64,000 bases of DNA from Caldisericota bacterium (GCA_024655865.1 JANLFM010000009.1:2000-65999); one strand, 5' to 3'. Shown: positions 10,319-26,661, counted from the stretch's first letter. Notes: generated by a model not told the origin, from the sequence alone. Program-made: numbers and translations.

Positions 10319-10341
10319 CCCGCGGAAGAGCGGGGATTTTT
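10319..10341 (+). terminator. Possible weak intrinsic terminator
   Basis: CCCGC-GGAAGA-GCGGG stem followed by GATTTTT, between convergent genes. Confidence 0.3.
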
Positions 10342-10449
10342 GCATTAGGTACCAAGGATGCAATTGCAGGATTCAGATCACTACTTTCCCCGGACCAATA
10401 ATTGGGTCGAGTGTCTTTCATTGTGGAAAGGCAATAAGAAGAATAGAGG

Positions 10450-11964
10450 CTAATCTTTAAAAGGTAAGATTGGAACCCTAATTCCTCGTGAGAATAACCA
10501 AAAGCTCAAACCCGTAACGACAACGCCCAAGCTAACCATAATTTCAGCCAAGGGTGAACCCACCAAAAGTGGTCCTATTCCAGCGACTCCCATTCCTGTT
10601 AAAGTAAGAATACAAAATTGAGTTCGAAGTCGCTGCGTCAAAGTTGCGGTTGATGGATATGATTGCTTTAAAGCGAGTCGCGGTTTTTTGAGGAGTATTT
10701 CTGCATAAGCAATTAGGGAATAGCAAACCCCTGTTACAAAAGCTGCTAAAAATAATGAATATGGATGTTTGACCAGAATTCCAACGCTGTATCCAATTCC
10801 TAAGCTGATCAGTCCCTCCCATTTTACTCCCGAAGACTCTTGCCATAATCGTTTGGAAAAAACGAAGTGGTCTAAAACGTAAAGCAAGCCAATTGCCGGA
10901 TATACAAAAGCTTGAATTTCTAAAAATAAGCCGAAATGATCTAAAATCCCAGCTGTTGCCAATGCGGTGCCTGAGACAACTGTAATGATGGCGAACCACC
11001 TTCTCGCAACCATAGAGGTAAGTCCTGTTAAATTGGCAAGAGCTAGACCAACAGAATAAATGTTTACTACTCGGGCAGGATTCCACTGCGCAATAATCAC
11101 TAAAATTAGCCCCCACGCAGGAAAACCTATTTTTAGAAAACCTTCAATTAGACCAACATCTGGCCCCATCGAGGCTACTAAAAAGGCTCCAAAAAGCGGT
11201 AATGCAATAGCGATCGGAACAATGCTTATTAATGGGAATAAAAATGAATCAGGCGTGATACGCCTGCAAAACCTAGCGTAGTCAGATAGGAGGACAAACT
11301 GACTCGCACAGCTTCCCAGAAGCCATAGTACACCCGTGGCAAGATCTGGTTTTGGGGCTTGAACCTGACGAATTTCCATAACACCACCGGGATTAAATAG
11401 AACCAGTATACATCCCCAGATGCATAAAATAATTAACGCGCAGGCTGATACGTAATTTGTCCAGGTTAAAAATTTTCTGCCAACGATATTAGGAAAAGCA
11501 AAAAGAAAACCTATACAGGCTGTAATGAAAAACAAAACTAAACCATTTCCAGTTAGTGTAGGGGCCAAAGCCTCAAGTAATTCCATGAGGGCACGAGAAG
11601 CTACTGCAATGTGAATTCCGTACCAACCCAGACCTTGGAGAATAAGAAGAACACTAATAAAAAAACGCGATCCTGTTAGACCAAAACTCGATCGTGCAAT
11701 TACTGATGCTGGCAGTCCTAAATCGGCACCCACTGCTGCATTCATCCAGTCGAATACTAGAATAATTAGAGCAGTAAGCCCAATAATGACGATTGATTGT
11801 AAAAAAGAAAATAGCTGAGCAATCATTACGCCAACCATAATCAAAGGCACGCAAGCCATACAGCTCATATAAATTGGAACGAGCCTTACCCAGTGCAACC
11901 GACTGTGCACTGGAATTTGACTTAAAGTAAAGCCCTCTTCATGGACTAAACCTACCTTTTTCAT
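10450..11964 (-). CDS. NCS1 (cytosine/purine/hydantoin) family permease
   Basis: GLPASVIARSSFGLTGS, GWYGIH, SDYARF, NIYSVGLALANL; 12 TM plus extra C-terminal hydrophobic segments. Confidence 0.85.
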   Translation of the reverse strand: MKKVGLVHEEGFTLSQIPVHSRLHWVRLVPIYMSCMACVPLIMVGVMIAQLFSFLQSIVIIGLTALIILVFDWMNAAVGADLGLPASVIARSSFGLTGSRFFISVLLILQGLGWYGIHIAVASRALMELLEALAPTLTGNGLVLFFITACIGFLFAFPNIVGRKFLTWTNYVSACALIILCIWGCILVLFNPGGVMEIRQVQAPKPDLATGVLWLLGSCASQFVLLSDYARFCRRITPDSFLFPLISIVPIAIALPLFGAFLVASMGPDVGLIEGFLKIGFPAWGLILVIIAQWNPARVVNIYSVGLALANLTGLTSMVARRWFAIITVVSGTALATAGILDHFGLFLEIQAFVYPAIGLLYVLDHFVFSKRLWQESSGVKWEGLISLGIGYSVGILVKHPYSLFLAAFVTGVCYSLIAYAEILLKKPRLALKQSYPSTATLTQRLRTQFCILTLTGMGVAGIGPLLVGSPLAEIMVSLGVVVTGLSFWLFSRGIRVPILPFKD

Positions 11965-12127
11965 TAAACGAAATATAAACGAAATTCATTGAAACGGCCA
12001 TCCCCTTGGTAAATTGGTGTAGATATTTGACTGAGAACACAAGTGTAAAATTTTGAGAAAAAAGGTTGAAAATTGAACAATTTTCTATTATTATGAAAAA
12101 AAACAGAAAAAATGAGCCTGAGGGGAT

Positions 12128-12520
12128 ATGTCAGAAAAGGAAAAAGAGTTGTTATCAAATATTGAATTAGGAGAAAGGCTAAAGCAGCTACTTTCAGAGC
12201 GGCGGGTTTCAATTACAGAGCTTGCCGAAAAGGTGGGAATATCTCGCCCTACGCTATATCGTATTTTGGATGGAAAAAGCGATCTGAAATTAAAAGATGC
12301 AATCGCTATTGCCCGTTATCTAAATGTTCCTTTAGAGTCGTTATACGGACTCGAGGAAGAAGCTAACCCTATAGATTTGTCTAATTTAGCGGTTCACTAT
12401 GGCTTGTTTAAAAGCGAGGAAAGCAAATTAATTCAAAAAATTTATAAAAGCCTGGCCAGGAAAGAGTTAGCAAAAATTTTGCGCGAAGCCGCTGATATGC
12501 TGGATATTACCGAACCGTGA
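12128..12520 (+). CDS. XRE-family HTH transcriptional regulator
   Basis: LGERLKQLLSERRVSITELAEKVGISRPTLYRIL...IARYLNVPLESL. Confidence 0.92.
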   Translation: MSEKEKELLSNIELGERLKQLLSERRVSITELAEKVGISRPTLYRILDGKSDLKLKDAIAIARYLNVPLESLYGLEEEANPIDLSNLAVHYGLFKSEESKLIQKIYKSLARKELAKILREAADMLDITEP

Positions 12521-12557
12521 AATTTTGCAGTCGGTTTATCAACTTGAGGTGGGTTAA

Positions 12558-13022
12558 ATGAAAGGTCTGGGAGATTTGCTACAAGAGTTTTTCGCAAGGG
12601 GGGTAATTGTTGCTTTTAGGCCCATGCATTTTTGGGCTGGGCTTCTTTGCAATGTTAAGAACCATTGGTTTTGCTTTATTAATTCCAAAAACCCCTTAGA
12701 AAACCAGCGTTGGACTTTAGCCCACGAGCTTGGCCATTTTGTTTTACATAAAGAAGAAGGAGGGCACCTTTTCACTGATGGTATTTTTTGCGGTACAGAA
12801 GAAGACGCCGAGTGGCAGGCTAATTGCTTTGCAGCTGAAATATTAATGCCCCCTGAAGCAATCGAAGCCATAATTCCTTATTATTTTACAGCACAGGATA
12901 AAGTAAATCATGTAGCAATGGAGTTTAAGGTGCCCGTAAAAATGGCCGCATGGTGGTTGTTTGAGCTGGGCCATATAAATAAGAAATGCTATAGCCACCT
13001 CCAAAAATCCGTTTCCAATTAG
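12558..13022 (+). CDS. ImmA/IrrE-family Zn metallopeptidase
   Basis: RWTLAHELGHFVLH (HExxH) and EWQANCFAAEILMP; GAGGT RBS upstream. Confidence 0.92.
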   Translation: MKGLGDLLQEFFARGVIVAFRPMHFWAGLLCNVKNHWFCFINSKNPLENQRWTLAHELGHFVLHKEEGGHLFTDGIFCGTEEDAEWQANCFAAEILMPPEAIEAIIPYYFTAQDKVNHVAMEFKVPVKMAAWWLFELGHINKKCYSHLQKSVSN

Positions 13023-13105
13023 AATCTTAAATTTCGTAATTTTAAACACTATATATTTTATCTTCTTAAAGTAGTAATAATAATTTAACACTTTTGTAAA
13101 AACTA

Positions 13106-13135
13106 TTGACAAAATTTTAACTATTTTTATACAAT
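13106..13135 (+). promoter_or_regulatory. Sigma70-type promoter of the island operon
   Basis: TTGACA (13106-13111), 18 nt spacer, TACAAT (13130-13135) in very AT-rich DNA; AAGGAGG RBS before 13224. Confidence 0.7.
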
Positions 13136-13223
13136 TGATTATGGGTGATGCTTATGTGAAAGCGCAAATATAGAAAGACTTATTAATTAAGCCACGAAAC
13201 AACAAGAAGGAGGCTTTTAAAAC

Positions 13224-14270
13224 ATGTCTGAATTTCTGTATGAATATGAGCTCGGGAAAGCTGCAAAAATTCTTTGTGAGGAATTGTTCAAGTTAAAACC
13301 GGGGGAAACTTTCATAATCACTGCTGACACGGAAAGTGACAGAAGAGTTGTGGAAGCTACAGCCAGAGCCGCTTTTGCTTGTGATGCTAAACCCATGGTT
13401 GTTTATACCGCATCTCCCTTAGGAGTGGGGAAAGCAGCCGACCCAATGCTTCCTGTGCAAGCCCTCACAGCTGCCCTTATAGAGACCGATGCATGGATTG
13501 AATATAATAATGAATGGCTTTTATATTCTACTCCTTATGATGTAGCCACGGCTAAGAACCCCAAGCTCCGATATCTAAACGCTTGTGGCATGAACGCGGA
13601 TATGATGGTTAGGTTGCTTGGCAGGGTGGATTTCTCTACATTAGAGAAATTCATGATTCGTCTGGTAGAACTCACCAAGAACGCTAAACATATGCGAGTT
13701 ACCACTCCGGCCGGGACTGATGTTGAATTTGATAATGATCCAGGACACCCAGTGAATTTAGAATGTGGCAGATACGATACTCCCGGTTCCCATATGCAAC
13801 CTGGACAAATTGCATGGGCTCCAGACTTAGAAACAATCAACGGTGTTATTGTATTCGATGGATCGATAGTGCCTCCCATTGTTGGCGTTTTACAGCAACC
13901 AGTTGCGCTTCATATCAAAAATGGCACAATTGTTAAAGTTGAGGGCGGTAAAGAAGCTGCGGAATACGAAAAATGGCTAAAAAGTTTTAATCACCCTCAA
14001 ATGCTTAAGCTTGCCCATATTTCCTATGGGGTTCATCCTAACGCGCGTTTGACCGGTGACATTGTGGAAGACGAGCGAATATGGGGAGCGACAGAATGGG
14101 GTATTGGTAACGTTGGACCAATACTGATCCCCGGTGGAATTTCAGGTCCTTCCCACTCCGATGGCATTTGCCTGAACAGTTCGGTTTGGCTTGATGGAGT
14201 CCAAATCTTAGATAAAGGTGTTTTCATCGAACCCGAACTGAAAGAGATGGCGAAGAAGTTAGGGAAGTAA
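13224..14270 (+). CDS. Peptidase M29-like / NicX-like metalloenzyme ('leucyl aminopeptidase' annotation class)
   Basis: RVTTPAGTD, INGVIVFDGS, VEGGKEA, AHISYGVHPNA, EDERIWG, SHSDG. Confidence 0.75.
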   Translation: MSEFLYEYELGKAAKILCEELFKLKPGETFIITADTESDRRVVEATARAAFACDAKPMVVYTASPLGVGKAADPMLPVQALTAALIETDAWIEYNNEWLLYSTPYDVATAKNPKLRYLNACGMNADMMVRLLGRVDFSTLEKFMIRLVELTKNAKHMRVTTPAGTDVEFDNDPGHPVNLECGRYDTPGSHMQPGQIAWAPDLETINGVIVFDGSIVPPIVGVLQQPVALHIKNGTIVKVEGGKEAAEYEKWLKSFNHPQMLKLAHISYGVHPNARLTGDIVEDERIWGATEWGIGNVGPILIPGGISGPSHSDGICLNSSVWLDGVQILDKGVFIEPELKEMAKKLGK

Positions 14271-14282
14271 TAAGGAGACGTC

Positions 14283-14993
14283 ATGAGGCGCATTAAAGTA
14301 ATTGTTCCTGTTGCAACCACGATATGGAATGAACCTAACCTTGCTGAGTTAAATAAGTACAAGGATGATTCCACTTCAATCGACCTTGTCAACATCGCGA
14401 AAGGCTCTGAATCCATCGAGAACGCATTTGATGAAGCCTGGTGTGCTTTGCCCACGCTCCAGGAGGTTATGAGAGCGGAACAGGAAGGCTACGATGGAGT
14501 GATCATCTATTGCTTTGGCGACCCAAGTCTAAAAGCAGCTAAAGAAGGATTAAAAATTCCAGTCGTTGGGATCGGTGAGGCAAGCGTTTACATAGCCTCT
14601 TTAATTGGAAGAAAATTTGGTATTATTACAGCAGGTCCTCCAGAAGCAGGCCCTTACATCCTTGACAACCTGAAAGTCTACGAGTTAGATCATAAGTGCG
14701 TTGGGGTATGCTCTATAGGGATTCCAGTCCTAAGTTTGGTTGACTCCCAGGAAGAGGAGCTAAAAGCTCTACTTAAATTTGGATCCGAAATGATTGAAAA
14801 AGGTGCGGATGTACTCGTCTTGGGCTGTGGGAGTATGTATGGGGTCGCGGAAAAAGCCTCTCAGGAATTGGGTGTGCCCATTGTAGTTCCTGCTGCTGCT
14901 GCAATAAAACTATGTGAAAGCCTAATCTCGATGGGCTTGGCTCAGAGCAAAAAAGCCTACCCATTCCCGCCTCAAAAAAAGCGTTTCAGTTGA
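14283..14993 (+). CDS. Asp/Glu/hydantoin racemase family protein
   Basis: YDGVIIYCFGDP, IPVVGIGEAS, VLVLGCGSM; both catalytic Cys present. Confidence 0.9.
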   Translation: MRRIKVIVPVATTIWNEPNLAELNKYKDDSTSIDLVNIAKGSESIENAFDEAWCALPTLQEVMRAEQEGYDGVIIYCFGDPSLKAAKEGLKIPVVGIGEASVYIASLIGRKFGIITAGPPEAGPYILDNLKVYELDHKCVGVCSIGIPVLSLVDSQEEELKALLKFGSEMIEKGADVLVLGCGSMYGVAEKASQELGVPIVVPAAAAIKLCESLISMGLAQSKKAYPFPPQKKRFS

Positions 14994-15034
14994 AGATCAA
15001 GAACGAAAATTGAAATATAAGGAGGAGTTTTAAA

Positions 15035-16744
15035 GTGATCAATTGGAAGAAACATTTCGTATTGGTACTCAGTTTAGCCCTCTCATTAGTGCTTATAACA
15101 TCCTGTACTGCGCCCAGTCCTACCCCTACATCTTCATTACCAACACCAACTAGCGCAGCATCTCCCACTTCTTCCACCACTGCGCCACCGAGAGAGAAGA
15201 TGGTGCGCGTTGCGCAAGGTTTCCCGGTATACATTGACCCAGGAGTAGCTATTGATAACGTATCGAATGTTTGCGTTGTAAATTTCTATGACCCCCTGTT
15301 GACTATCGATGAAAACGGTGATCCTCAACCAAAAGTGGCCGAAAGCTGGAAATTTGATCCCGATACACTTACTTATACTTTAAAGATAAGGAAGGGGATT
15401 AAGTTCCACAACGGAGATGAGCTAAAAGCCAGCGATGTTGTTTTTAGCTTAAAGCGATTGATTGATATGGGCGAGGGCTGGGGGTATTTGTTCCGTGGGG
15501 TAGTGAAAGAGGTTTCGGCCCCGGATGCAGAGACGGTAAAGATCGCTTTAGAGCGTCCAGTAGGGCCATTTTTGTTCTATCTTGAGCACGTGGCCGTGCT
15601 CAATGAGAAGCAGGTGATGGAGAACGCTCAAAAAGAAGGTCCCTATGGAGAGTTTGGCGATTACGGCAAGAGTTGGCTGCTCACGCATGATGCTGGTTCT
15701 GGGCCCTATATGGTTAAAGAGGTTAAGCTTGAGGAACATGTGATTGGCATTCGCAACCCAAATTATTGGCAGGAGATAGATAAGGATGCCCCTGATTCCT
15801 TCAAGATCATCGGCACTACAGAGCCGGTTACAGTACGCACCCTGATGGCTAAGAAGGAACTGGAGATCTCCGACGAATGGCAGCCTACAGAAAATTACGA
15901 TGCTATGAGCAAGCTGCCTGGCGTGAAAATAGCCAATTTAAGAACAGGGGCACCGTTAATGCTCATGTTTAACACATCAAAGCCGCCACTGGACGATGTG
16001 CACTTCCGTCGGGCTGTAATGTACGTATTTGATTATGCTGTGTGTCAGGAGCAAATCCTGCCTACTGCGGAGCGTGCGCGGGGACCGATAAGCCCTATTA
16101 TCCCAGGCAGTGACCCAACATTGCCTCTGTTGGAAAGAAATGTTGAGAAGGCAAAAGCCGAGTTGGCACAATCTAAGTATGCGGGGCAACTGGATCAATA
16201 CCCTATCGAGTTCTGGTGGAATTCTGTAGTTCCTGATCAAGAAAAGATCGCTTTGCTCCTACAAAGCAACTGCGCGGAAATCGGTATCAAGGTGAATGTT
16301 GTAAAAAGTAGCTGGACCCAGTTCATAGATGCAGCTGCGAAACCAGATACTACTCCACACATATTTCCCGTGATCCACTCCTCTATTACATATCCTGAAG
16401 CTGGGTCACTCTTGTACCAAATTTATCATTCTAATACCCGGGGTACGTTCTTTAATATGCACTGGTTCGATGATACCACCCAAGCCGAAATTGACTCGAT
16501 GCTCGAGGATGCTCTTGCCACTCTTGATAAAAATGAACGCTATGAGAAGTACAAAGCGATTATCAGGAAAATAATGGACCTGGCGCCGGATATCGTTGCC
16601 GTGGAGATGCCTCAGCGTCATGCTTACCAAGCAGAATACCTGATGTGGCCAACCGCGAAAGCGGCCGAGACAGGCGGAAAGATTTGCCTTTTGCCCGAAT
16701 TACGCATGCAATTCAAAGACATGAGGTTCATCGGTGGAGAATGA
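15035..16744 (+). CDS. Peptide ABC transporter substrate-binding lipoprotein (SBP family 5)
   Basis: Lipobox LITSC, P/T/S tether, AESWK..IRKGIKFHNGDELKASDVVFSL, GSGPY, PLDDVHFRRA. Confidence 0.93.
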   Translation: MINWKKHFVLVLSLALSLVLITSCTAPSPTPTSSLPTPTSAASPTSSTTAPPREKMVRVAQGFPVYIDPGVAIDNVSNVCVVNFYDPLLTIDENGDPQPKVAESWKFDPDTLTYTLKIRKGIKFHNGDELKASDVVFSLKRLIDMGEGWGYLFRGVVKEVSAPDAETVKIALERPVGPFLFYLEHVAVLNEKQVMENAQKEGPYGEFGDYGKSWLLTHDAGSGPYMVKEVKLEEHVIGIRNPNYWQEIDKDAPDSFKIIGTTEPVTVRTLMAKKELEISDEWQPTENYDAMSKLPGVKIANLRTGAPLMLMFNTSKPPLDDVHFRRAVMYVFDYAVCQEQILPTAERARGPISPIIPGSDPTLPLLERNVEKAKAELAQSKYAGQLDQYPIEFWWNSVVPDQEKIALLLQSNCAEIGIKVNVVKSSWTQFIDAAAKPDTTPHIFPVIHSSITYPEAGSLLYQIYHSNTRGTFFNMHWFDDTTQAEIDSMLEDALATLDKNERYEKYKAIIRKIMDLAPDIVAVEMPQRHAYQAEYLMWPTAKAAETGGKICLLPELRMQFKDMRFIGGE

Positions 16745-16770
16745 AAAGTTAAATCAGGAATAATTCTGCG

Positions 16771-16800
16771 AGGAGGAGGAGGCCGTCGCCCCCTCCTCCT
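16771..16800 (+). promoter_or_regulatory. Intra-operon stem-loop after the SBP gene
   Basis: AGGAGGAGG...CCTCCTCCT inverted repeat with no U-tract; probably an mRNA-stabilising or processing hairpin. Confidence 0.55.
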
Positions 16801-16827
16801 TAAATTAGAACGAAAGGGGTTTAATGT

Positions 16828-17916
16828 ATGATCCAAATTGAACGAATGGTTCGCAACTTGTGTGAAATGGTTCAGATTCCAAGTGAATCTGGTGAAGAAC
16901 AGGAGTTTATCAAGTACCTTGCCAGGAAGTTTGCTGATGATTTAGGCGCAAAATGCTATATCGATGACTACGGGAACCTTATTGCCAAGATTCCTGCTCG
17001 CTCATGTAGTAGCATGAGCCCTCTATTCTTCGCCATGCATGCAGATACTGTCAAACCCGGGAAGGGGATTCAACCTAAAGTGGTCAATGATTTTGTGTGC
17101 TCCAGTGGAGACACGATCTTAGGGGCAGACTGCAAGGCCGGAATTGCCGAGTTCATTGAGGCGGTTAAATCTGCTGATCGTTATCCTCCTTTAGAAGTTG
17201 TAATTACCAGAGAAGAGGAAATTGGTTTTGGGGGAGCTAAACATTTGGATTTTAACCAGATCACCGCCAAACAAGGTTTCCTATTAGACATGGATGCCCT
17301 TGATGCGATTGTTGTTGGTGGCCCTTCTCATATGCTCATCGATATCGAGATCACAGGCAAAGCCGCTCATGCCGGAATGGAACCAGAAAAGGGGATATCC
17401 GCAATAAAAGCGGCTGCTAACGCAATAGCTATTATCAAAGATGGGCGCATCGATGCGGAAACTACATCCAACATCGGCATCATTCAGGGCGGTCTAATCA
17501 GGAACGGAGTTCCGGAGAGAGTAACTATCAAGGCAGAAGCTCGTAGCTTAAACCACGAAAAGTGCCTCGCAGTGAGTCAGATCATAAAAGATGCTTTTGA
17601 AGTCTGCGCCAGAGCGATAGGAGCGAAGGCTGAGGTAGTCCTAAATCTTGCTTACAAGGCTACCCGCATTCCTGAGGACAGCCCAATGGTGAAAATCGCT
17701 CGTGAAGCTCTGGAAAGCGTGGGCATCCATCCGCGGACAATAGTAATTACCGGAGGATTAGAATCAGCAATTTACAACGAAAAAGGTATTCAAACTGTAC
17801 CACTGGGCAACGGGGTTAAAGACGAGCATTCCACGTCTGAAAGAGTAGCCATTTCTGATATGCAGACGGTGGTCCGGGTTTTGCATTATGTTTTCAATCA
17901 TTTTTGCAAAAGCTGA
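16828..17916 (+). CDS. M20 family peptidase T-like metallopeptidase
   Basis: HADTV, LGADCKAG, REEEIG, GKAAHAGMEPEKGISAI, EHSTSE. Confidence 0.9.
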   Translation: MIQIERMVRNLCEMVQIPSESGEEQEFIKYLARKFADDLGAKCYIDDYGNLIAKIPARSCSSMSPLFFAMHADTVKPGKGIQPKVVNDFVCSSGDTILGADCKAGIAEFIEAVKSADRYPPLEVVITREEEIGFGGAKHLDFNQITAKQGFLLDMDALDAIVVGGPSHMLIDIEITGKAAHAGMEPEKGISAIKAAANAIAIIKDGRIDAETTSNIGIIQGGLIRNGVPERVTIKAEARSLNHEKCLAVSQIIKDAFEVCARAIGAKAEVVLNLAYKATRIPEDSPMVKIAREALESVGIHPRTIVITGGLESAIYNEKGIQTVPLGNGVKDEHSTSERVAISDMQTVVRVLHYVFNHFCKS

Positions 17917-17925
17917 AATTTAAAA

Positions 17926-18441
17926 ATGGAAATCTTAAATGTCATTCAGGGTCGACGTAGCATAAGAAGATACCGGCCTGATCCCGTAAGTGTGGATCAA
18001 TTACAAGCCCTTGTTTCAGAAGCAGGGATCTGGGCACCTTCTGCTGGTAATACGCAAACATGGCGGTTTGCTGTAATTACAAACTCATTATTGCTGCATA
18101 AAATAAAATTGGTTAGCCCAGGGCTTTTAGGTTCCCCTCCCGCATTGATTGTAATTTGTCAAGATCTGGAAGAGGCCCAACTGAAAGGCGGATCATTAGG
18201 GCCCCAATTCTTAGCAATCGCAGATGCTGCTATGGCTGCGCAGAACATTATGCTCTACGCCCATGCTCTTGGTCTTGGAACCTGTGTAATTGCATCCTTT
18301 CACCGAGAAGCATTGCAAGCAATCCTTGGTTTACCCCGTTCAATTGCTCCAATTTTTATAGTATCGGTTGGTTATCCAGAGTGTACACCAAGAACCCCAA
18401 TTCGAAAGAAGGACGTGATTTGGTTCAATGAATACAAATAG
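17926..18441 (+). CDS. Nitroreductase-fold flavoprotein, cyclodipeptide oxidase subunit A (AlbA)-like
   Basis: RRSIRRY, APSAGNTQTW, GLGTC nitroreductase motifs; VSPGLLGSPPALIVIC resembles AlbA FSPGVLGTPAFFVVAC (recalled); overlaps a DUF6092 gene. Confidence 0.8.
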   Translation: MEILNVIQGRRSIRRYRPDPVSVDQLQALVSEAGIWAPSAGNTQTWRFAVITNSLLLHKIKLVSPGLLGSPPALIVICQDLEEAQLKGGSLGPQFLAIADAAMAAQNIMLYAHALGLGTCVIASFHREALQAILGLPRSIAPIFIVSVGYPECTPRTPIRKKDVIWFNEYK

Positions 18442-18754
18442 GGATCAGCGGACAAAACAGATTTATCAGCAGCTTATTGAGTTAATTTGTTACATAATTG
18501 TTAGCGCTCGCAATTTAGTCCAGGAACCAAAACTATACGGGCCTTTACGGATGATTGATGTTGCGGGAAGACTAGTCGACATATTAAGTTGTGAAGACAT
18601 CGAATTTCCTCTTTTACCAGTTTTCCGCAAACACATTGAAACCGCAAAGGATAGTATTATCGAAGGAGAAGCTTCTTTCGCTGCAAATTTAGAGTCTTTG
18701 GTATCTGATGTGATATCTGTTTTGGCTAACAGTCAAAAGGAGGGTACCCTGTGA
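18428..18754 (+). CDS. DUF6092 family protein, cyclodipeptide oxidase subunit B (AlbB)-like
   Basis: YIIVSARNLVQEPKLYGPLRMID matches the AlbB pattern YLLSSGRGLLEEPADYGIYRCTD (recalled); 108 aa, helical. Confidence 0.8.
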   Translation: MNTNRDQRTKQIYQQLIELICYIIVSARNLVQEPKLYGPLRMIDVAGRLVDILSCEDIEFPLLPVFRKHIETAKDSIIEGEASFAANLESLVSDVISVLANSQKEGTL

Positions 18755-19776
18755 AACTTGGGCCATTTATTCTCCGTCGCCTTTTATTGAGCATTTTTGT
18801 TCTTATTGGCTTATCGATAGTTATCTTTATTTTAGCTCGCGTAGTTCCCGGTGATCCAGCCCGGCTAGCTTTAGGACCAAGAGCGCCAGAAGATGTGGTT
18901 GAACAACTCCGCAAGGAATTACACATGGACAAGTCTTTACCGGAACAATATTGGATTTGGTTGACAAATGCCCTTCGTGGCGACCTTGGTAAATCGCTGG
19001 TGACTAAGCGCCCAGTGATTGAGGATATAAAAGAATACCTTCCTGCTACCTTGGAATTAGTCTTCTTTACTGCTATTTTCATGGTTTTCTTTGCTATTCT
19101 CCTTGGTACTCTTGCGGCCAGATATAAAGACAGGTGGGTAGACGGCGTGATTCGCATTTTCTCTTACATTGGCGTTTCTATTCCTGCATTCGTTTTAGCA
19201 GTGTTCTTTATCCTGATTTTCGGTTATGCTTGGCCAATTTTGCCGGTACTTGGTCGTTTGGGCTCTCAGTTCACTGTGGCAAGGGTTACAGGATTTATGA
19301 TTTTGGACTCCATGCTTGCGGGAAATTGGACTGCAGCTTGGAATGCATTTACGCACTTGATTTTGCCCGCAATCGCCTTGGCACTCGGTGGCACATTTCA
19401 AGAAGCCAGAATTACTCGTTCCAGCATGGTTGATAACTTGTCCAAAGATTTCATTGCTGCAGAAAGAGGGTATGGAATTCCTGAAAGGAGAATCATGTTT
19501 AAATATCTGCTTAAGCCCTCATTGATTCCGACAGTTTCTGTAATGGGAATGGATATTGCAGCGACGATAGGCAACGCCTTTTTGGTCGAGATGATTTTCA
19601 ACTGGCCAGGCATTTCCCGTTACGGAATCAACGCTATGCTTTTTAAAGACTTGAACGCGATCTCGGGGGTAGTGCTGATAATAGGGTTAATCTTTGCACT
19701 CACCAATATCGTCGTTGATATTATTGTTGCTTTTCTGGATCCTCGTGTCCGTTTGGGCGGAATAAGGGGGCAATAA
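18751..19776 (+). CDS. Peptide ABC transporter permease (DppB-like)
   Basis: VPGDPA, GDLGKS, PATLEL, HLILPA, VEMIFNWPGI, DPRVR. Confidence 0.94.
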   Translation: MKLGPFILRRLLLSIFVLIGLSIVIFILARVVPGDPARLALGPRAPEDVVEQLRKELHMDKSLPEQYWIWLTNALRGDLGKSLVTKRPVIEDIKEYLPATLELVFFTAIFMVFFAILLGTLAARYKDRWVDGVIRIFSYIGVSIPAFVLAVFFILIFGYAWPILPVLGRLGSQFTVARVTGFMILDSMLAGNWTAAWNAFTHLILPAIALALGGTFQEARITRSSMVDNLSKDFIAAERGYGIPERRIMFKYLLKPSLIPTVSVMGMDIAATIGNAFLVEMIFNWPGISRYGINAMLFKDLNAISGVVLIIGLIFALTNIVVDIIVAFLDPRVRLGGIRGQ

Positions 19777-19777
19777 T

Positions 19778-20692
19778 ATGGCCAATAAAAATTTTCTGGC
19801 AGTAACTGTTGAAAAGCCTCGAGAAAAGGGAAAGTGGCACAGGTTTTGGGATAGGGTATCTCGATACTGGTACCACTTTTCTCGCAATAAACTTTCCGTC
19901 GTGGGATTGGCGATTGTCGTTTTGGTGATTATACTAGCCATTTTTGCTCCTTTGGTAACGCCTTACCCTGAACATGCAGGCCCATTTGTCGACTATAAAA
20001 ATGCTGGTCAGCCTCCTAGCGCTAAGTATTGGCTTGGAACTGATCCCATCGGCAGAGATATCTTTTCTCGGATAATCTTTGCCTTCCGTGGTGCCCTGGT
20101 TATGTCAATTCTGGTTTTAGCAATCGCCGTACCAGTTGGTACTGTTTTTGGCCTTCTGGCTGGGTTTTATCATGGGACGATTATAGATACCGTTATTATG
20201 CGCATTTCAGACATATTCCTCTCCGTCCCCTCTCTTGTTCTTGCTCTGGCCATCGCTGCAGTGCTTAAGCCAAACCTAATGAATTCCATGATTGCGGTCA
20301 CAGTAATGTGGTGGCCATGGTATACGCGCCTTGTTTATGGTATGGCTTCCTCAATTCGAAACGATTATTTTGTAATTGCAGCAGAGTTGAGTGGAGCGAG
20401 CAAATTCCACATTATTTTCCGCGAAATTTTGCCCAATTGCCTTTCTCCTGTTTTCACGAAAATGGCCTTAGATGTGGGATGGGTGATTTTGATTGGTGCT
20501 TCGCTGAGCTTCGTAGGACTCGGGGAACAACCACCTACGCCAGCGTTAGGCCAGATGGTATCGGATGGCGCTAGGTATTTACCCCAGCTTTGGTGGATGA
20601 GCGTTTTTCCAGCTCTGGCTATAATCATCGTAATTTTAGGTTTTAATCTTTTTGGAGATGGAATTCGGGATATGTTGCAGTCTTCCCGTTAA
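19778..20692 (+). CDS. Peptide ABC transporter permease (DppC-like)
   Basis: WLGTDPIGRDIFSRI, EILPN, SLSFVGLG, FNLFGDGIRD. Confidence 0.94.
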   Translation: MANKNFLAVTVEKPREKGKWHRFWDRVSRYWYHFSRNKLSVVGLAIVVLVIILAIFAPLVTPYPEHAGPFVDYKNAGQPPSAKYWLGTDPIGRDIFSRIIFAFRGALVMSILVLAIAVPVGTVFGLLAGFYHGTIIDTVIMRISDIFLSVPSLVLALAIAAVLKPNLMNSMIAVTVMWWPWYTRLVYGMASSIRNDYFVIAAELSGASKFHIIFREILPNCLSPVFTKMALDVGWVILIGASLSFVGLGEQPPTPALGQMVSDGARYLPQLWWMSVFPALAIIIVILGFNLFGDGIRDMLQSSR

Positions 20693-20715
20693 ATGGCCTA
20701 AAGAGAGGAGCGCTA

Positions 20716-21702
20716 ATGGACGATAAGACCTTACTCGAGATAAAGGATCTTCATGTTTGGTACAAAGTTTATGGAGGCTACCTAAAGGTTCTTCATGGAG
20801 TGAATTTTTTAGTGCGTAAAGGAGAGCGAGTGGGACTAGTAGGGGAAGCCGGGTGCGGCAAAACTACTACCATGAAATCGATCCTGCAAATTCTTCCGCC
20901 AGGTGACTCTCGCATTCCTAAGGGAGAAATAATTTATAAGGGGAAGGATATCTTGAAAATGAGCTTTGGCGAGCTTCAAAGGCTTCGCTCCAAAGAGGTT
21001 GCCATGATCTTTCAAGACCCGACTGCTGCCCTGAACCCAGTTTTCACAATAGGAGCTCAAATCGGGGACGTCGTCAGATATTCAATCGCCTTAGAAGAGA
21101 AGAGAGTTAAGAAAGAAAAAATTAAAACGCTGTCAGCTAGGGCTCTAAAAGAGGTTTACATGCCAGACCCTGAGAGAATCTTAACGAACTACCCCTTTCA
21201 GTTGAGTGGTGGCATGCGACAGAGGGTTTGTATTGCAATGTCCATTTCCTCTCCTCGAAACCTGCTCATCGCTGATGAACCCGGAACATCCCTGGACGTT
21301 ACAATTCAGGACCAGATCCTTCGCCTCCTAAAGGAGATTGTGGAGAAGCAAGGGACCTCTATCATTTTAATCACCCACTCTCTGGGCGTTGCCCGGGAAA
21401 TGACTGACAGGATATACGTGATGTATGCGGGGACAATCGTGGAAACCGCTCCCGCCAAAGACCTTTTTAAGAATCCGGTGCATCCATATACCAGAGGTCT
21501 ACTGGCCTCCGTTCCTAAAATATCCGGAGGGGGAATAGCCCGGGGCATTCCAGGAAGAATCCCGGATTACCTGAATCCTCCACCTGGCTGCCGATTCCAG
21601 CCAAGGTGCGAATACGCTACTCCTTCTTGCCAGGAGAAACCGCCTCAATTGTTCGAGATTGATAAAGACCACTTTGTAGCATGTTATTTGGCTCAGAGGT
21701 GA
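20716..21702 (+). CDS. Peptide ABC transporter ATP-binding subunit (DppD-like)
   Basis: GEAGCGKT, YPFQLSGGMRQR, IADEP, HPYT, GCRFQPRC. Confidence 0.94.
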   Translation: MDDKTLLEIKDLHVWYKVYGGYLKVLHGVNFLVRKGERVGLVGEAGCGKTTTMKSILQILPPGDSRIPKGEIIYKGKDILKMSFGELQRLRSKEVAMIFQDPTAALNPVFTIGAQIGDVVRYSIALEEKRVKKEKIKTLSARALKEVYMPDPERILTNYPFQLSGGMRQRVCIAMSISSPRNLLIADEPGTSLDVTIQDQILRLLKEIVEKQGTSIILITHSLGVAREMTDRIYVMYAGTIVETAPAKDLFKNPVHPYTRGLLASVPKISGGGIARGIPGRIPDYLNPPPGCRFQPRCEYATPSCQEKPPQLFEIDKDHFVACYLAQR

Positions 21703-21707
21703 ATGCA

Positions 21708-22706
21708 ATGACTCAACAGGGAAATAGTGAAATCTTGAAAGTCGTAAATTTGAAAAAGTACTTCCGCATTGGCAAGGATAAGAGGGGTCCGATTTACGTT
21801 CGTGCTGTCGATGGGGTAAGCTTCAATGTCAAATATGGTGAGACTCTGGGATTAGTAGGAGAATCTGGTTCTGGGAAGAGCACGATCGCTTATACAGTTG
21901 TGGGAATGTATCGCCCGACATCAGGACAAATTCTTTTTAAGAATCAGAATATCGGCATGGAAGCAGTGAGGAGGCCATTGTCCCTTAAAAAGGAAATCCA
22001 GATCGTTTTTCAAGACCCGGGATCCTCTCTTAATCCAAGGCAAACAATTGAACAAATTTTAAGGCTGCCTCTTAAGCTTCACACCAACACGCCAAAGAAA
22101 CAACTTAAAGAAAAAATGATTGAGCTTCTGGAAAAGGTTGAACTTCCTGCGGATTATCTGTACAAATCACCCCCATCCATCGGTGGTGGGGAAAAACAAA
22201 TGGTGGCCATTGCCAGAGCTCTGGCCCCTAACCCCTCCCTGATTGTTCTTGACGAACCCACTTCCGCTTTGGATGTCTCAGTGCAGGCAAAGATCATCAA
22301 TAAACTAATGGATCTGCAAAAAGAACTGAACTTAACCTATTTGTTCATCACCCATGACCTGAGCCTGATGAGAAATGTAGCGAACAGAATCGCAATCATG
22401 TATCTGGGAAAAATTTGCGAGGTTGCTGATGCCGCCACCTTCTTTGAAAAGCCTCTCCACCCCTATACCCAGATGCTCATCTCCTCGGTGCCTGTGGTTA
22501 CCGAAGAGGAGGAGAGACTAAAGCCCAAGAAGGTCGTGTCTATAGGGGAAATCCCCAGCCCTGTCAACATTCCACCGGGATGCAGTTTCCATCTGAGGTG
22601 CCCATATAAAATGCCGATCTGCTCGGAGGTTGATCCCGAGATGAAAGAGGTTGCTCCTGAACACATTGTTAGGTGTCATCTTTTCGGGAAACAGGCAAGT
22701 GGATAG
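21708..22706 (+). CDS. Peptide ABC transporter ATP-binding subunit (DppF-like)
   Basis: [38 protein letters not shown]. Start moved to the ATG at 21708 after GAGGTG. Confidence 0.93.
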
Positions 22707-22720
22707 GAGGCGGATAAATA

Positions 22721-23470
22721 GTGCAAAGGAAAATTCTCTACATAGAACCCGTTGTGAGCAATATGGCAGCTTCCTGGAAAGAGTATCTATCAAAATTTAT
22801 TTCCCCGGAGACGGAACTTGAGGTAACTTCTCTGCCCGAAGGTCCCAGGCATCTGGAATATTATTCTTACGGATCGCTGGTCGTGCCTCAACTTTTAAAA
22901 ATTATAAGAAAAGCGGAAAGAGAAAATTTCGATGGGGCAATCATCGGGTGCTTTTACGATCCTGGTTTAAGGGAAGCCCGAGAAATCGCAGAGCAATTAG
23001 TGGTTACTGCTCCCGCTGAAGCTTCAATGCATATTGCTTCTACCTTGGGGCAGCGCTTTTCCATAATCGTTACAGAAAATAAAACTGTACCTCTCATGAG
23101 GGAGAATGTCATTAAATACGGGTTTTTGGATCATTTAGCATCCTTCCGGGCCCTTGGCATGGGGGTTCTGGAGCTCCAAGTTGATCCGGAGGAAACCAAA
23201 AGGAGAATCGTGCGGGCCGCGGAGCAAGCCATAGAGCAAGATGGAGCGGAAGTCATCATCCTCGGTTGTACTATTCAATTCGGGTTCTATCAGGAATTGC
23301 AGGGTACTTTAAGAGTTCCGGTAATAGACGTTGCCTGTGCTGCCTTGAATTATGCTGAATTCCTCATAGATTTGAAGGATAAACACGGCTGGTATTTTAA
23401 CAAGAAGAACGAGTATCTTCCACCTCCAAGAGAAGAAATAGAAGCCTGGAAACTTTCAGAGTTATTTTAA
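22721..23470 (+). CDS. Asp/Glu/hydantoin racemase family protein (second)
   Basis: FDGAIIGCFYDPGLREARE, AEVIILGCT, VPVID; both catalytic Cys present. Confidence 0.9.
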   Translation: MQRKILYIEPVVSNMAASWKEYLSKFISPETELEVTSLPEGPRHLEYYSYGSLVVPQLLKIIRKAERENFDGAIIGCFYDPGLREAREIAEQLVVTAPAEASMHIASTLGQRFSIIVTENKTVPLMRENVIKYGFLDHLASFRALGMGVLELQVDPEETKRRIVRAAEQAIEQDGAEVIILGCTIQFGFYQELQGTLRVPVIDVACAALNYAEFLIDLKDKHGWYFNKKNEYLPPPREEIEAWKLSELF

Positions 23471-23590
23471 ATACTTTTGATGCAAAATTTTTTGCCCCAC
23501 GGATTACTTCTGCTCCTGAGAAAAAAGACCCCTCGGTTAAATCTTGATCGAGACCTCATGATTATTGAAAACGGAGAAAAATAGGGCCCT

Positions 23591-24514
23591 TTGATAAGAG
23601 AAAATGGATCCTTGAGGTTTAAGATCTTAAAACCTTTTCCCAATTTAAAGAGTTTTCTCGGGGATTTATTGCTGCTTCTGGCGGCTATGATCTGGGGAAT
23701 GGGTTATGTTGCAAGGAGGATTGGAAGCCTGGAAGCCCCGCCATTCACTTTTAATGGATTGCGGTTTTTGATCGGAGCGGTTGTCTTAATTCCTCCTCTT
23801 TTTATCAAAGGAATTAAAAATCAATTGAGAGCTCAGGAGATCTATGCCGGGATTATTACCGGTTTCTGCCTCTGTATCGGGACAAATTTGCAACAAATTG
23901 GCCTAAAGTGGACTGACGCGGGAAAGGCCGGCTTCATTACAGGTTTGTATGTTGTCTTGGTTCCCGTTATCGGGCTTTTCCTGGGAAGGAAAGTCAATCT
24001 TTTTAATTCAATTGGAATTCTTTTTGCGCTTTCTGGCCTTTTTTTCCTGAGTCCCTGGCAAGGGGGATCAATAAATCAGGGGGATTTAATCATGATCCTT
24101 TGTGCCCTAATTTACGCAATTTATATTATCATTGTTGGAAAATTCTCCCCGGAATGCAACCCTTTGGGTTTTTCCTTTGTTACCTTTTTATCCTGCGGGA
24201 TACTGAGCCTCTTCCCAGGAGTTTTTGAAAGATCCCAGTGGGGGACCCTCCAGGAGGTAATTTGGCCCCTGTTATATTCCGGGCTTTTTGCGGTGGGAAT
24301 TGCATATTCTTTGCAGGTTACGGCACAAAAATTGACCCTTCCCAACCATGCTGCGATTATAATGAGCCTTGAGGCGGTTTTTGCGGTCATATTTGGGGTT
24401 TTGATACTTCAGGAAAATCTGAGTCCACGGGAATTGATTGGGTGCTTTTTGATGCTTTCCAGTTTTGTCGTTGTCCAGGGGGACAAACTTAGAGGGAACT
24501 TTGAATTGAAGTAA
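23591..24514 (+). CDS. EamA/DMT family transporter
   Basis: AAMIWG..RFLIG, AGFITGLYVVLVP, SLEAVFA; ten TM segments. Confidence 0.9.
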   Translation: MIRENGSLRFKILKPFPNLKSFLGDLLLLLAAMIWGMGYVARRIGSLEAPPFTFNGLRFLIGAVVLIPPLFIKGIKNQLRAQEIYAGIITGFCLCIGTNLQQIGLKWTDAGKAGFITGLYVVLVPVIGLFLGRKVNLFNSIGILFALSGLFFLSPWQGGSINQGDLIMILCALIYAIYIIIVGKFSPECNPLGFSFVTFLSCGILSLFPGVFERSQWGTLQEVIWPLLYSGLFAVGIAYSLQVTAQKLTLPNHAAIIMSLEAVFAVIFGVLILQENLSPRELIGCFLMLSSFVVVQGDKLRGNFELK

Positions 24515-24637
24515 CTTTCAGGCCAACTTTCCTCTGAATTTTTTAAATTTTTTGCCCTTTGCATTTTTCCGGAGTGGGTTTACATTTACCAGACTTTACT
24601 TTATCTTAAATAAAATCTAAAATTTTAAACAAGAGAT

Positions 24638-25621
24638 ATGCTGCTCTTTATAAGAGGGCAAGAAATTTCTCAGATTCTGACGATGACAGAGGCCATCAAG
24701 GCAGTGGAGGATGGGTTTCTCTCACTTTATCAAGGCAAGGTGTTGATGCCTCAAAGGACGGTCCTGAATACCGGAATCAACGACGGTACCCTCCTCACTA
24801 TGCCAGTTTTAGTCGCAAGCGATTCCCCCTCTATGGCGGTCAAAGTGATCACAGTCTATCCTCAGAACCCCGTACTTTTCAGCCTCCCCGCAATTCAGGG
24901 TCTTGTTATTCTTTATGATCCGGAAAAGGGAAAGCCCCTTGCTATCATCGATGGTGCTGCCTTAACCGCTATCAGGACTGGATCTGCAGGAGGGGTAGCA
25001 GCCAAATATCTGGCACGGCAGGATTCCCGGACAGTTACCCTTTTCGGTGTGGGAGCCCAGGGGGAGACTCAGCTTGAGGCCGTTTGCACCGTTTGCCTCA
25101 TTAAGAAGGCTTTTATCATCACGAACAATGATCCTCGCGAGCGACCTTTCCTTGAAAAAATGAAAGAAAAATTAGGTATTGAGCTCATTCTCACCGGGGA
25201 TAAAAAATCAGCCCTGGAGCAGTCGGACATCGTAATCACGGCTACTAATTCTCGCATTCCCCTTTTCGATGGAAGGTGGGTAAGACCGGGGACGCATATC
25301 ACGGCCATTGGTTCTTACAAACCAGATTTCAGGGAGCTGGATACAGAAACCATTAAAAGAAGCCGGATCTTCGTTGACAGCCTGGATGCTGCAAAAGAAG
25401 AGGCGGGCGATTTAATTATCCCCGTCTCCGAAGGAGCAATTACCTGGGACTCCGTCGCTGGAGAAATTGGGGCGGTGATTGCAGGAGAGATTCCCGGAAG
25501 AAAGAGCGAGAAGGAGATAACCCTGTTCAAATCGGTAGGCCTGGCGGTACAGGATGCCGTTGTGGCCCAGGAGATATACCGGAGAGCACTAAAGGCTGGA
25601 CTGGGAACAAAATTAGATTAG
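24638..25621 (+). CDS. Ornithine cyclodeaminase/mu-crystallin family; probable Delta1-pyrroline-2-carboxylate reductase
   Basis: LTAIRTG, GVGAQG, PGTHITAIGS, ITLFKSVGLAVQD; adjacent to a Cys/Thr proline-racemase-family gene. Confidence 0.85.
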   Translation: MLLFIRGQEISQILTMTEAIKAVEDGFLSLYQGKVLMPQRTVLNTGINDGTLLTMPVLVASDSPSMAVKVITVYPQNPVLFSLPAIQGLVILYDPEKGKPLAIIDGAALTAIRTGSAGGVAAKYLARQDSRTVTLFGVGAQGETQLEAVCTVCLIKKAFIITNNDPRERPFLEKMKEKLGIELILTGDKKSALEQSDIVITATNSRIPLFDGRWVRPGTHITAIGSYKPDFRELDTETIKRSRIFVDSLDAAKEEAGDLIIPVSEGAITWDSVAGEIGAVIAGEIPGRKSEKEITLFKSVGLAVQDAVVAQEIYRRALKAGLGTKLD

Positions 25622-25632
25622 GAGGGAGAAAC

Positions 25633-26661
25633 TTGGAGATCACCTGGAAACCGCCGAAGGACTGGATGAAGATCAAGACCATAGACGCCCACGCAGCTGG
25701 GGAACCCCTGAGAGTTATAGTTGAGGGTTATCCCCCTATTCCGGGAAAGACCATCCTGGAAAAGAGGCGATATCTCAAAGAGAACCTGGATTTTCTGCGC
25801 ACTGCCTTGATGTGGGAACCTCGGGGGCACGCCGACATGTACGGCGCAATTATCACAGAACCCGTGAGCCGGGAAAGCGATGTAGGGGTGATTTTCTTGC
25901 ATAACGAAGGGTACAGCACAATGTGCGGACACGGGGTGATCGCCTTAGCCACCGTCCTCCTTGAGACCGGGATAATCGAAAAGGAAGGGGATAATCCGGT
26001 GATCAAAATGGACACACCGGCTGGTCTGGTGACTGCGGTGGCACACAGGGAGGGAGGCGGGGTTAAAGAAGTTTCCTTCCAGAATGTTCCCTCCTTCCTC
26101 TATTTGAGGGATCAGGTTGTGGAAGTCCCGGGAATTGGTAAAGTGAAATACGATGTGGCTTTCGGAGGAGCCTTTTACGCCTTTGTGAATGCTGAGGAAA
26201 TTGGGATCGGGTTGGGCCCGGAGGATTTCCGCCAGCTGATCGATAAAGGTATGCGCATAAAGCATGCGGTCATGGATTCCGTGCCCATCCGGCATCCCTT
26301 TGAGGATGATTTAAGCTTCCTCTACGGGACGATCATTGTGGGCAAAGCGCAGGAGCCTGAACACCACAGCAGGAACGTTTGCATTTTCGCTAACGGAGAA
26401 GTAGACCGCTCTCCCACCGGGACAGGGGTGAGCGCACGCGCAGCGATCCATCATTTCAAGGGAGAGTTAAAAATGAATGAGCCCTTTACCGTGGAAAGTA
26501 TTATCGGTACCTGTTTTACAGGGAAAGCAGTCGACAAAACCAAATTTGGTCCTTATGATGCGGTGATCCCCGAAGTAACCGGAAGTGCCTCCATCGTCGG
26601 GCTTTGTGAGTGGTGTATTGACCCACAGGACCCGTTGCGCCACGGCTTTATTCTCCGTTAA
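25633..26661 (+). CDS. Proline racemase family, Cys/Thr dyad; probable trans-3-hydroxy-L-proline dehydratase
   Basis: IDAHAAGEP, EPRGHADMYG, STMCGHG (Cys) and DRSPTGTG (Thr in place of the second Cys). Confidence 0.88.
   Translation: MEITWKPPKDWMKIKTIDAHAAGEPLRVIVEGYPPIPGKTILEKRRYLKENLDFLRTALMWEPRGHADMYGAIITEPVSRESDVGVIFLHNEGYSTMCGHGVIALATVLLETGIIEKEGDNPVIKMDTPAGLVTAVAHREGGGVKEVSFQNVPSFLYLRDQVVEVPGIGKVKYDVAFGGAFYAFVNAEEIGIGLGPEDFRQLIDKGMRIKHAVMDSVPIRHPFEDDLSFLYGTIIVGKAQEPEHHSRNVCIFANGEVDRSPTGTGVSARAAIHHFKGELKMNEPFTVESIIGTCFTGKAVDKTKFGPYDAVIPEVTGSASIVGLCEWCIDPQDPLRHGFILR

Follow-up and report, generated by a model that had tools for sequence, protein, structure and literature searches.

The question raised by this stretch of DNA, 64,000 nucleotides from a Caldisericota bacterium (GCA_024655865.1, JANLFM010000009.1:2000-65999; the whole stretch is called the window here, and coordinates are counted from its first letter), is what its host does with an operon in which a peptide-type importer is found together with two racemases, two peptidase-fold enzymes and a pair of proteins resembling the cyclodipeptide oxidase (CDO) AlbA/AlbB. 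An earlier note on this DNA had read the operon as a degradation route for cyclic dipeptides, the 2,5-diketopiperazines (DKPs), built around the AlbA/AlbB-like pair. Part of that stands, as the operon is linked to an importer, appears catabolic and is co-conserved, but the pair is not its centre and the unit is wider than was proposed. The answer favoured here, and held tentatively, is that an island spanning 10450-24514 serves the uptake and breakdown of peptide-derived cyclic amides that are small, uncharged and of mixed stereochemistry, with DKPs as the best single reading of the substrate, possibly including those that contain proline or hydroxyproline.

The NicX-like protein encoded by the first gene of the operon was used as an anchor, which gave 160 relatives in contigs sampled at one genome per species, from which 79 loci were kept, 51 of them being long loci of at least 12 kb; the open reading frames (ORFs) of each locus were searched with profiles iterated from the window proteins. 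The substrate-binding protein (SBP) of the importer is found in 49 of the 79 loci (36 of the 51 long ones), a racemase in 37 (27), the M20 peptidase in 21 (13), the AlbA-like subunit CDOA in 19 (15) and the AlbB-like subunit CDOB in 17 (14), with both CDO genes present in 17 of the 79. At least one of these five families occurs in 47 of the long loci, those with none being L004, L039, L050 and L069. It is apparent that the recurring anchor is the NicX-like gene with its importer and that the CDO pair often joins them, so that an operon built around AlbA/AlbB, as first described, does not agree with these counts. Co-conservation itself is borne out, the order NicX-like, M20, CDOA, CDOB, SBP, DppBCDF, racemase being repeated in L007, L010, L011, L013, L019, L035 and L046 and recurring under several bacterial and archaeal phylum labels. 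The labels carried by the loci are Atribacterota, Caldisericota, Coprothermobacterota, Aerophobetes, Bipolaricaulota, Thermotogae, Bacillota, Spirochaetota, Bathyarchaeia, Hadarchaeota and Sulfolobales, and the closest syntenic loci are labelled Caldisericota, Coprothermobacterota and Thermodesulfobiota. For GatB of the host, the nearest named relatives bear the label Coprothermobacterota, at 64-65% identity. Within the phylum of the window DUF6092, the family of CDOB, is carried by 8 of 93 genomes, the host genome included. All seven of the other DUF6092 loci have M20, CDOA and CDOB together, with M20 directly upstream, and six have a NicX-like gene upstream, the seventh contig being 4.7 kb long and beginning at M20; these seven probably overlap records among the 79 NicX-like loci, thus the two counts are not independent.

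Genes found beside these units in relatives point to amino acids as the products. In L038, L040 and L045 the NicX-like, SBP and Dpp genes are accompanied by ProRac, DAO, FAD-FeS oxidoreductase and DHDPS-family genes, which together we take to be a 4-hydroxyproline catabolic set, and M24 (prolidase-type) peptidases are found in five loci. In L030, L036 and L042, one of which is labelled Syntrophobacterales and two Bathyarchaeia, subunits of 2-oxoacid:ferredoxin oxidoreductases (POR/POR_N and TPP_enzyme_C/PFO_beta_C) are encoded at a distance of a few genes from those for the NicX-like protein and CDOA/CDOB.

Both racemases belong to the allantoin/hydantoin branch of PF01177, as judged by their two cysteine motifs and their closest solved relatives. 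The best PDB match of each is 3qvj (1.7e-34 for racemase 1 and 1.6e-27 for racemase 2), the allantoin/hydantoin racemases 5lfd and 2eq5 are also among the matches, and the motifs are aligned in both, CFGDP and LGCG, which are conserved, in racemase 1 and CFYDP and LGCT in racemase 2, their cysteines presumably being the catalytic ones. The fungal cyclic-peptide epimerase OpaE is among the matches of racemase 2 (2.7e-18), and aspartate racemases match only at E 8e-4, with TIGR00035 at 0.0034. Related loci carry up to three racemases each.

Racemases of this branch would also be at home in an operon for five-membered cyclic ureides or amides that resemble hydantoin, for example 5-substituted hydantoins, allantoin-like compounds or lactams of the oxoproline type. 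Such a substrate would make the two proteins true hydantoin racemases, with the NicX-like enzyme opening the ring and the M20 enzyme acting as a decarbamoylase. This is how Andreas et al. 2024 (PMC11055893) have read clusters of the same kind. The available excerpts of their paper report 274 CDO clusters, 88% of them without a cyclodipeptide synthase (CDPS), and the non-CDPS clusters, some of which occur in anaerobes, are enriched in PF01177 racemases, DUF917, AroM, Dpp/Opp ABC transporters, EamA and peptidases; hydantoin- or allantoin-like substrates, not DKPs, are proposed for them. The surroundings of the NicX-like genes lend this reading further support, as an NCS1 permease gene lies upstream of the window operon and is kept in four related loci, and other families associated with five-membered cyclic amides are found in the related loci, namely DUF917/S-Me-THD-like (8 loci), HyuA (4), HyuB (3), AroM (5), PucR regulators (5) and CN_hydrolase (3), with a DUF917 gene also present in a further NicX-like module of the host. 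However, among the 11 operon proteins there is no hydantoinase, either of the dihydropyrimidinase type or HyuAB, and no N-carbamoyl-amino-acid amidohydrolase, whilst the M20 enzyme is PepT-like (282.9 bits) and reaches just 46 bits on the hydantoinase/carbamoylase model TIGR01879, the cut-off of which is 204. A hydantoin has one stereocentre, whereas there are two racemases here and as many as three in relatives, and the links to hydroxyproline catabolism and to M24 peptidases are better suited to peptides. No solved transporter resembles the NCS1 protein (none in the PDB at E<=0.01), so that this comparison says nothing for or against an Mhp1-like hydantoin carrier. We regard a hydantoin-like five-membered ring as an unlikely substrate.

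The importer is complete and of the Dpp/Opp type, with a family-5 SBP, two permeases and two oligo_HPY ATPases. Its SBP (15035-16744) begins with a lipobox-like LITSC followed by a Pro/Thr-rich linker and, because the binding protein carries this lipoprotein signal, the ABC system is predicted to be an importer, not an exporter, and the operon to be catabolic. It is known that in Escherichia coli DppA the dipeptide's amino terminus is held by D408 and its carboxylate by R355 (PMC8566422, in the part of that article available). In an alignment of K-12 DppA, the window SBP, a paralogue from elsewhere in the host genome (contig C22) and 51 SBPs from the related loci, each 450 aa or longer, the window protein has Phe where DppA has R355 and Thr where it has D408; the first of these columns is occupied by Leu, Val, Ile, Phe or Tyr in 50 of the 51 locus SBPs and Asp is absent from the second in 40, of which 33 have His. 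The sole SBP that keeps both anchors is part of a separate Dpp-like transporter in L011, 7.5 kb from the NicX-like gene, and serves as an internal control. With both anchors for the peptide termini missing, ordinary zwitterionic linear dipeptides are unlikely ligands, which weakens an ordinary dipeptide permease as an explanation, and an SBP of this kind would fit an uncharged ligand.

The same evidence bears upon unusual linear di- or tripeptides, carrying D-residues, rich in proline or hydroxyproline or blocked at the amino terminus, with necromass, cell wall or collagen-like proteins as their source. Cleavage would then fall to the two peptidase-fold enzymes, D-residues, whether released or bound, would be handled by the racemases, and the CDO-like pair would have a side role. 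A Dpp/Opp-type transporter with oligo_HPY ATPases is in keeping with this, as are the closest solved SBPs, which bind peptide, murein-peptide, glutathione or opine, the presence of a PepT-like M20 enzyme beside an M29-fold one, and the M24 and hydroxyproline-catabolic genes of the related loci. Yet it is the carboxylate-anchoring Arg and, in most cases, the amino-anchoring Asp that these SBPs lack, the racemases fall in the ring-substrate branch of PF01177 and match aspartate racemases poorly, and the conserved catalytic tyrosine of the AlbB type would be left without a role. Unusual linear peptides are regarded as about as unlikely a substrate as the hydantoin-like rings.

The AlbA/AlbB-like pair is encoded by genes that overlap by 14 nt. 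The top two of 55 PDB matches of CDOA, a minimal protein of the nitroreductase fold, are the AlbA chains 8uc3_A (1.6e-24) and 9exv_A (1.1e-22), and CDOB matches only AlbB (9exv_C at 1.9e-5 and 8uc3_D at 0.013). In AlbB, according to the available text of Andreas et al. (PMC11055893), Y37 is the probable catalytic base, its exchange for Phe abolishing the activity of AlbAB, and E33, P34 and R41 are strongly conserved; in AlbA, R24 and R28 bind the phosphate of flavin mononucleotide (FMN), S54A lowers activity 62-fold, and C115 carries a covalent FMN (8-alpha-S-cysteinyl), present only in CDPS-linked CDOAs. The four AlbB residues are aligned without gaps and are all kept in CDOB, with E33, Y37 and R41 invariant in 19 of 19 CDOBs (the window protein and 18 relatives from NicX-like loci), and R24 and R28 of AlbA align with R10 and R14 of CDOA. 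This residue comparison places the window pair in the published group of non-CDPS 'CDO-like' enzymes, with an intact AlbB-type tyrosine and presumably a non-covalent flavin; the natural role of that group is left as an open question in the structural paper (PMC11055893, available part). Among the hallmarks of cyclodipeptide oxidases are assembly into filaments and the O2-dependent dehydrogenation of DKPs between C-alpha and C-beta.

Carriers of the EamA family, one of which is encoded just downstream of the operon, are often exporters. This would suit a biosynthetic cluster for a modified peptide or a hydantoin secondary metabolite, the second suggestion of Andreas et al., as would the fact that characterised CDOs are tailoring enzymes (PMC11055893, available part), but such a cluster is rejected as highly improbable, since no match to a CDPS (PF16715) or to the condensation domain of nonribosomal peptide synthetases (PF00668) was found in the whole 96.18%-complete genome, which extends to the genome what had been noted for the window, the ABC system with its extracytoplasmic binding lipoprotein imports, the partner genes are peptidases and catabolic genes, and four paralogous modules are carried in a genome of only 1.8 Mb.

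For the product of the first operon gene (13224-14270) the local libraries of Pfam and NCBIfam give no match. In the PDB, NicX alone is related to it in sequence (7cn3; 2.5e-14, or 5.2e-19 with a profile), and PF26233, which is named 'NicX', is precomputed on all 120 homologues listed for it. A Foldseek search with an AlphaFold model (13-row alignment, mean per-residue confidence, pLDDT, of 69.8, used for the fold match alone) ranks NicX at the top, at a structurally aligned identity of 20%, followed by the M29 peptidases PepS, AmpT and AmpS (E 3.5e-13 to 3.8e-9), whilst the M29 family of Pfam, PF02073, falls short of its threshold (15.3 bits where 27 are required, with E 0.0093 and residues 9-61 only). 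The M29/NicX-like label given in the earlier note is thus correct, as is every other family call made there when compared with Pfam, NCBIfam, PDB matches and Foldseek. H265, H311 and D313 are invariant among the aligned homologues and align with H265, H318 and D320 of NicX, which we take to be its Fe(II) ligands. Other residues that do not vary are the acidic D212, E240, E244 and E282-E284.

A true dihydroxypyridine dioxygenase was considered for this gene and set aside, given its peptide-type importer context and the likely anaerobic lifestyle of the host. Neither a haem-copper oxidase (COX1) nor a cytochrome bd oxidase is matched in the host genome, an absence that at 96.18% completeness is not proven, and rubrerythrin and radical-SAM genes are present in the window. 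Dioxygenase chemistry is for this reason implausible here, and the NicX-like protein is proposed to be an amide or ring hydrolase. At least two NicX-like ORFs are present in 33 of the 79 loci (for example L010, L014, L018, L022 and L029), mostly in tandem, as paralogues about 348 and 324-350 aa long, so that in many lineages the enzyme may be hetero-oligomeric; the window operon has one copy.

If DKPs are the substrate, the parts could be joined in the following route. The anchor-less surface lipoprotein of the Dpp/Opp family would pass the substrate to DppBCDF, after which the two Cys/Cys racemases of the allantoin/hydantoin type would epimerise the alpha-carbons of the ring. The NicX-family enzyme, with an M29 fold and a His-His-Asp metal site, would hydrolyse an amide bond of the ring or of a product derived from it. 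The AlbA/AlbB-like flavoenzyme may dehydrogenate the bond between C-alpha and C-beta using an anaerobic acceptor, or may reduce dehydro forms; from the known chemistry of dehydroamino acids, a dehydro residue would make the ring labile to hydrolysis, passing from enamide to acyl-imine and then to a 2-oxoacyl product and an amide. The PepT-like M20 enzyme, together with the NicX-like enzyme, would finish the linear product, the XRE and M78 proteins encoded upstream would regulate the system and the NCS1 and EamA carriers would be accessory.

Several considerations place DKPs first among the possible substrates. What chemistry has been proven for the CDO family takes place on that ring, a substrate with two centres suits a set of two or more ring racemases, the two hydrolases present have peptidase folds and are not a hydantoinase with a carbamoylase, and the relatives link the system to proline, hydroxyproline and 2-oxoacid genes. 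In addition DKPs, as described in the available part of Perzborn 2013, form spontaneously from peptides and resist common peptidases but are cleaved by strains that hydrolyse hydantoins or dihydropyrimidines, with cyclo(D-Ala-D-Ala) not attacked, and because of that last observation racemases would be useful in their breakdown.

A number of points weigh against this reading. The CDO genes are absent from 36 of the 51 long loci, so the sole family with proven DKP chemistry is optional, and the families associated with five-membered cyclic amides that surround NicX-like genes (DUF917/S-Me-THD-like, HyuA, HyuB, AroM, NCS1, CN_hydrolase and PucR, counted above) lead elsewhere. Missing DppA anchors are also known from family-5 proteins that bind ligands other than peptides, and the SBP was aligned to DppA at 22% identity, with flanking motifs that align consistently. 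In the pair itself S54 of AlbA aligns with G41 of CDOA, and the covalent-flavin Cys115 of AlbA lies in an insertion that is absent from CDOA. All characterised CDOs use O2 (PMC11055893, available part), and in a host without a detected terminal oxidase the CDO-like enzyme would have to use another electron acceptor and may even run in the reverse direction. The model of the NicX-like protein falls below a pLDDT of 50 at residues 179-194 and 279-317, the latter including H311 and D313, and all of the enzyme roles, as well as the substrate, have been inferred from sequence.

A bolder form of the DKP reading, which is rather doubtful, is that this would be the first genetically defined pathway for eating DKPs, in which NicX-family proteins of anaerobes would be metal-dependent hydrolases, and not dioxygenases, acting on cyclic dipeptides or on the oxidised products of their ring opening, the AlbA/AlbB-like pair an oxygen-free ring activator that dehydrogenates between C-alpha and C-beta and gives 2-oxoacids, the paired racemases a means of erasing abiotic D/L scrambling and the multi-copy cassette a main recycling route of these anaerobes for protease-resistant, racemised peptide debris. 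If true, it would give functions in anaerobes to three poorly understood families, the NicX-like proteins, the DUF6092 pairs and the orphan 'hydantoin' racemases, and it could provide enzymes for the stereoselective processing of cyclic dipeptides. The locus offers a compact, testable set of eleven genes.

The eleven genes are consecutive ORFs on the + strand, running from 13224 to 23470 with intergenic spacing of -22 to +83 nt, and their description as one tightly packed operon has held up. These and the adjoining features are listed below.

Features of the island and its operon in the window (open reading frames of paired components in brackets)
Feature	Coordinates	Strand	Basis
NCS1-family permease (cytosine/purine/uracil/allantoin type)	10450-11964	-	Pfam Transp_cyt_pur E 2.5e-20
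XRE-type HTH regulator	12128-12520	+	HTH_3 E 3.4e-12
M78 (IrrE/ImmA-like) metalloprotease domain protein	12558-13022	+	Peptidase_M78 E 2.7e-19
Candidate sigma-70-like promoter	13106-13135	+	TTGACA-18-TACAAT, 11/12 positions; consensus match only
NicX-family (M29-fold) metalloenzyme, 348 aa	13224-14270	+	PDB NicX 7cn3, PF26233, fold match
Racemase 1, allantoin/hydantoin-racemase type	14283-14993	+	PF01177 (Asp_Glu_race) E 8e-42
Family-5 substrate-binding lipoprotein	15035-16744	+	SBP_bac_5 E 3e-67
PepT-like M20 metallopeptidase	16828-17916	+	TIGR01883 282.9 bits, cut-off 274.25
CDOA, AlbA-like nitroreductase-fold flavoprotein subunit	17926-18441	+	Nitroreductase E 1e-31
CDOB, AlbB-like DUF6092 subunit	18428-18754	+	PF19585 E 5e-20, 71.9 bits, cut-off 28.7
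DppB- and DppC-type permeases	18751-20692 (18751-19776, 19778-20692)	+	BPD_transp_1 with BPD_transp_1_N and with OppC_N
DppD- and DppF-type ATPases	20716-22706 (20716-21702, 21681-22706)	+	ABC_tran and oligo_HPY in each
Racemase 2, allantoin/hydantoin-racemase type	22721-23470	+	PF01177 (Asp_Glu_race) E 1e-37
EamA-family transporter, possibly belonging to the unit	23591-24514	+	EamA E 8e-44

The promoter was previously called clear. The site is the best sigma-70-like match within 12000-27000, but the total number of such sites in that region, 23, equals the expectation from shuffled sequence (22.5), so that it counts as a consensus match only. Among sequencing runs sharing sampled words with this DNA no RNA run was listed, and the best DNA run contains 0.28 of the words and the others 0.19 or less, figures that are no evidence on expression or habitat.

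The limits of 13224 and 23470 are too narrow for what is conserved. The NCS1 permease gene, transcribed divergently from the operon, has a counterpart in 4 of the 79 related loci (L004, L006, L007 and L013), where it lies just upstream of the NicX-like gene, an M78 gene is present in the same four, and in L006, L007 and L013 the XRE and M78 pair stands ahead of the NicX-like gene. L013 and L006 both open with NCS1 (on the - strand), XRE, M78 and NicX-like, and L007 has the order XRE, M78, NCS1 (-), NicX-like, M20, CDOA, CDOB, SBP, DppBCDF, racemase, EamA, in which EamA follows the racemase as it does in the window. Because the related loci share the arrangement of NCS1, XRE/M78 and EamA, the conserved block is taken as 10450-24514. 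The NCS1 permease is probably an accessory transporter and the M78 protein probably the partner of the XRE regulator.

The G+C content is 0.40-0.46 over 10001-24000 and 0.48-0.54 in both flanks, which, with the patchy distribution of DUF6092 in the phylum, is compatible with lateral acquisition of the island. The unit is not alone in the host, whose 1.82 Mb carry four modules with NicX-like genes and about eight matches to the racemase family PF01177. A second CDO module is spread across two contig ends, with a racemase and the N-terminus of a NicX-like protein on C28 and the NicX-like C-terminus, CDOA, CDOB, SBP, DppBCDF and M20 on C20. The C20 SBP (locus L003, 12785-14477) is split between two ORFs (317 and 229 aa) that lie in different frames, which suggests a frameshift, a pseudogene or a misassembly; the C28 part is locus L084, 2-811. 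Two further NicX-like modules, both without CDO genes, lie on opposite strands of C22 (locus L083, C22:143001-163000), one with NicX-like, SBP, DppBCDF, racemase, an unknown gene and a DUF917/S-Me-THD-like gene and the other with NicX-like, M20 and two racemases. Within L083 the DUF917/S-Me-THD-like gene is at 12967-14073 and the adjoining 283-aa protein (12119-12970) is without a Pfam match.

Downstream of the window operon by 1.2 kb an OCD/mu-crystallin gene and a proline-racemase-family gene stand side by side (24638-26661). Among NCBIfam models the latter scores best on trans-3-hydroxy-L-proline dehydratase, with 402.8 bits where the cut-off is 540, and the two genes look like a hydroxyproline-to-proline pair. 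They are followed by a Liv-type amino-acid ABC importer at 26801-31609 and, at 31678-32541 on the - strand, by an ORF of 287 aa that matches no Pfam family at E<=1e-6. On the other side of the island there is a rubrerythrin gene (5253-5708, - strand) and, on the + strand over 6010-10142, a radical-SAM/4Fe-4S protein, an ABC ATPase and two ABC-2 permeases.

The earlier note knew of no characterised pathway of this kind. In the open-access literature of PubMed Central and bioRxiv there was indeed found no genetically defined DKP catabolic pathway, DKP hydrolase or gene cluster, nor another paper since 2024 linking a cyclodipeptide oxidase with hydantoin; what was found on DUF917/thiohydantoin was synthetic chemistry only, and on NicX/M29 in anaerobes nothing relevant was found. 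The class of neighbourhood, however, has been published, the non-CDPS 'CDO-like' clusters of Andreas et al. 2024 (PMC11055893) being the same class as the window operon. In the available text of that paper the NicX/M29 partner, the lost SBP anchors and DKP catabolism are not raised, and as far as that text goes the NicX-family anchor, the anchor-less binding proteins and the links to hydroxyproline and 2-oxoacid metabolism go beyond the published description.

The AlbA/AlbB pair of Streptomyces noursei (8uc3) and the Nocardiopsis CDO (9exv) share with the window pair their overlapping genes, the FMN-phosphate arginines and E33, P34, Y37 and R41 of AlbB, whereas the window pair lacks Cys115, has Gly in place of S54, is set in an operon for import and peptide cleavage and belongs to a host in which neither a CDPS nor a terminal oxidase was detected. 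NicX, the 2,5-dihydroxypyridine 5,6-dioxygenase of Pseudomonas putida (7cn3), has the same fold and His-His-Asp triad as the window protein, but the window gene is found with a peptide-type importer, not with nicotinate degradation, and in a host that is probably anaerobic. The Dpp permease of E. coli has the same five-component architecture and the same families as the window importer, with R355 and D408 in DppA where the window SBP has Phe and Thr. Finally, the hydantoinase process, which employs a racemase, a hydantoinase, a carbamoylase and an Mhp1-type permease, shares with the window operon the branch of its racemases, a nearby NCS1 gene and two hydrolytic steps after the racemase, whereas the window operon has a peptide-family ABC importer and a CDO pair in place of a recognised hydantoinase and carbamoylase.

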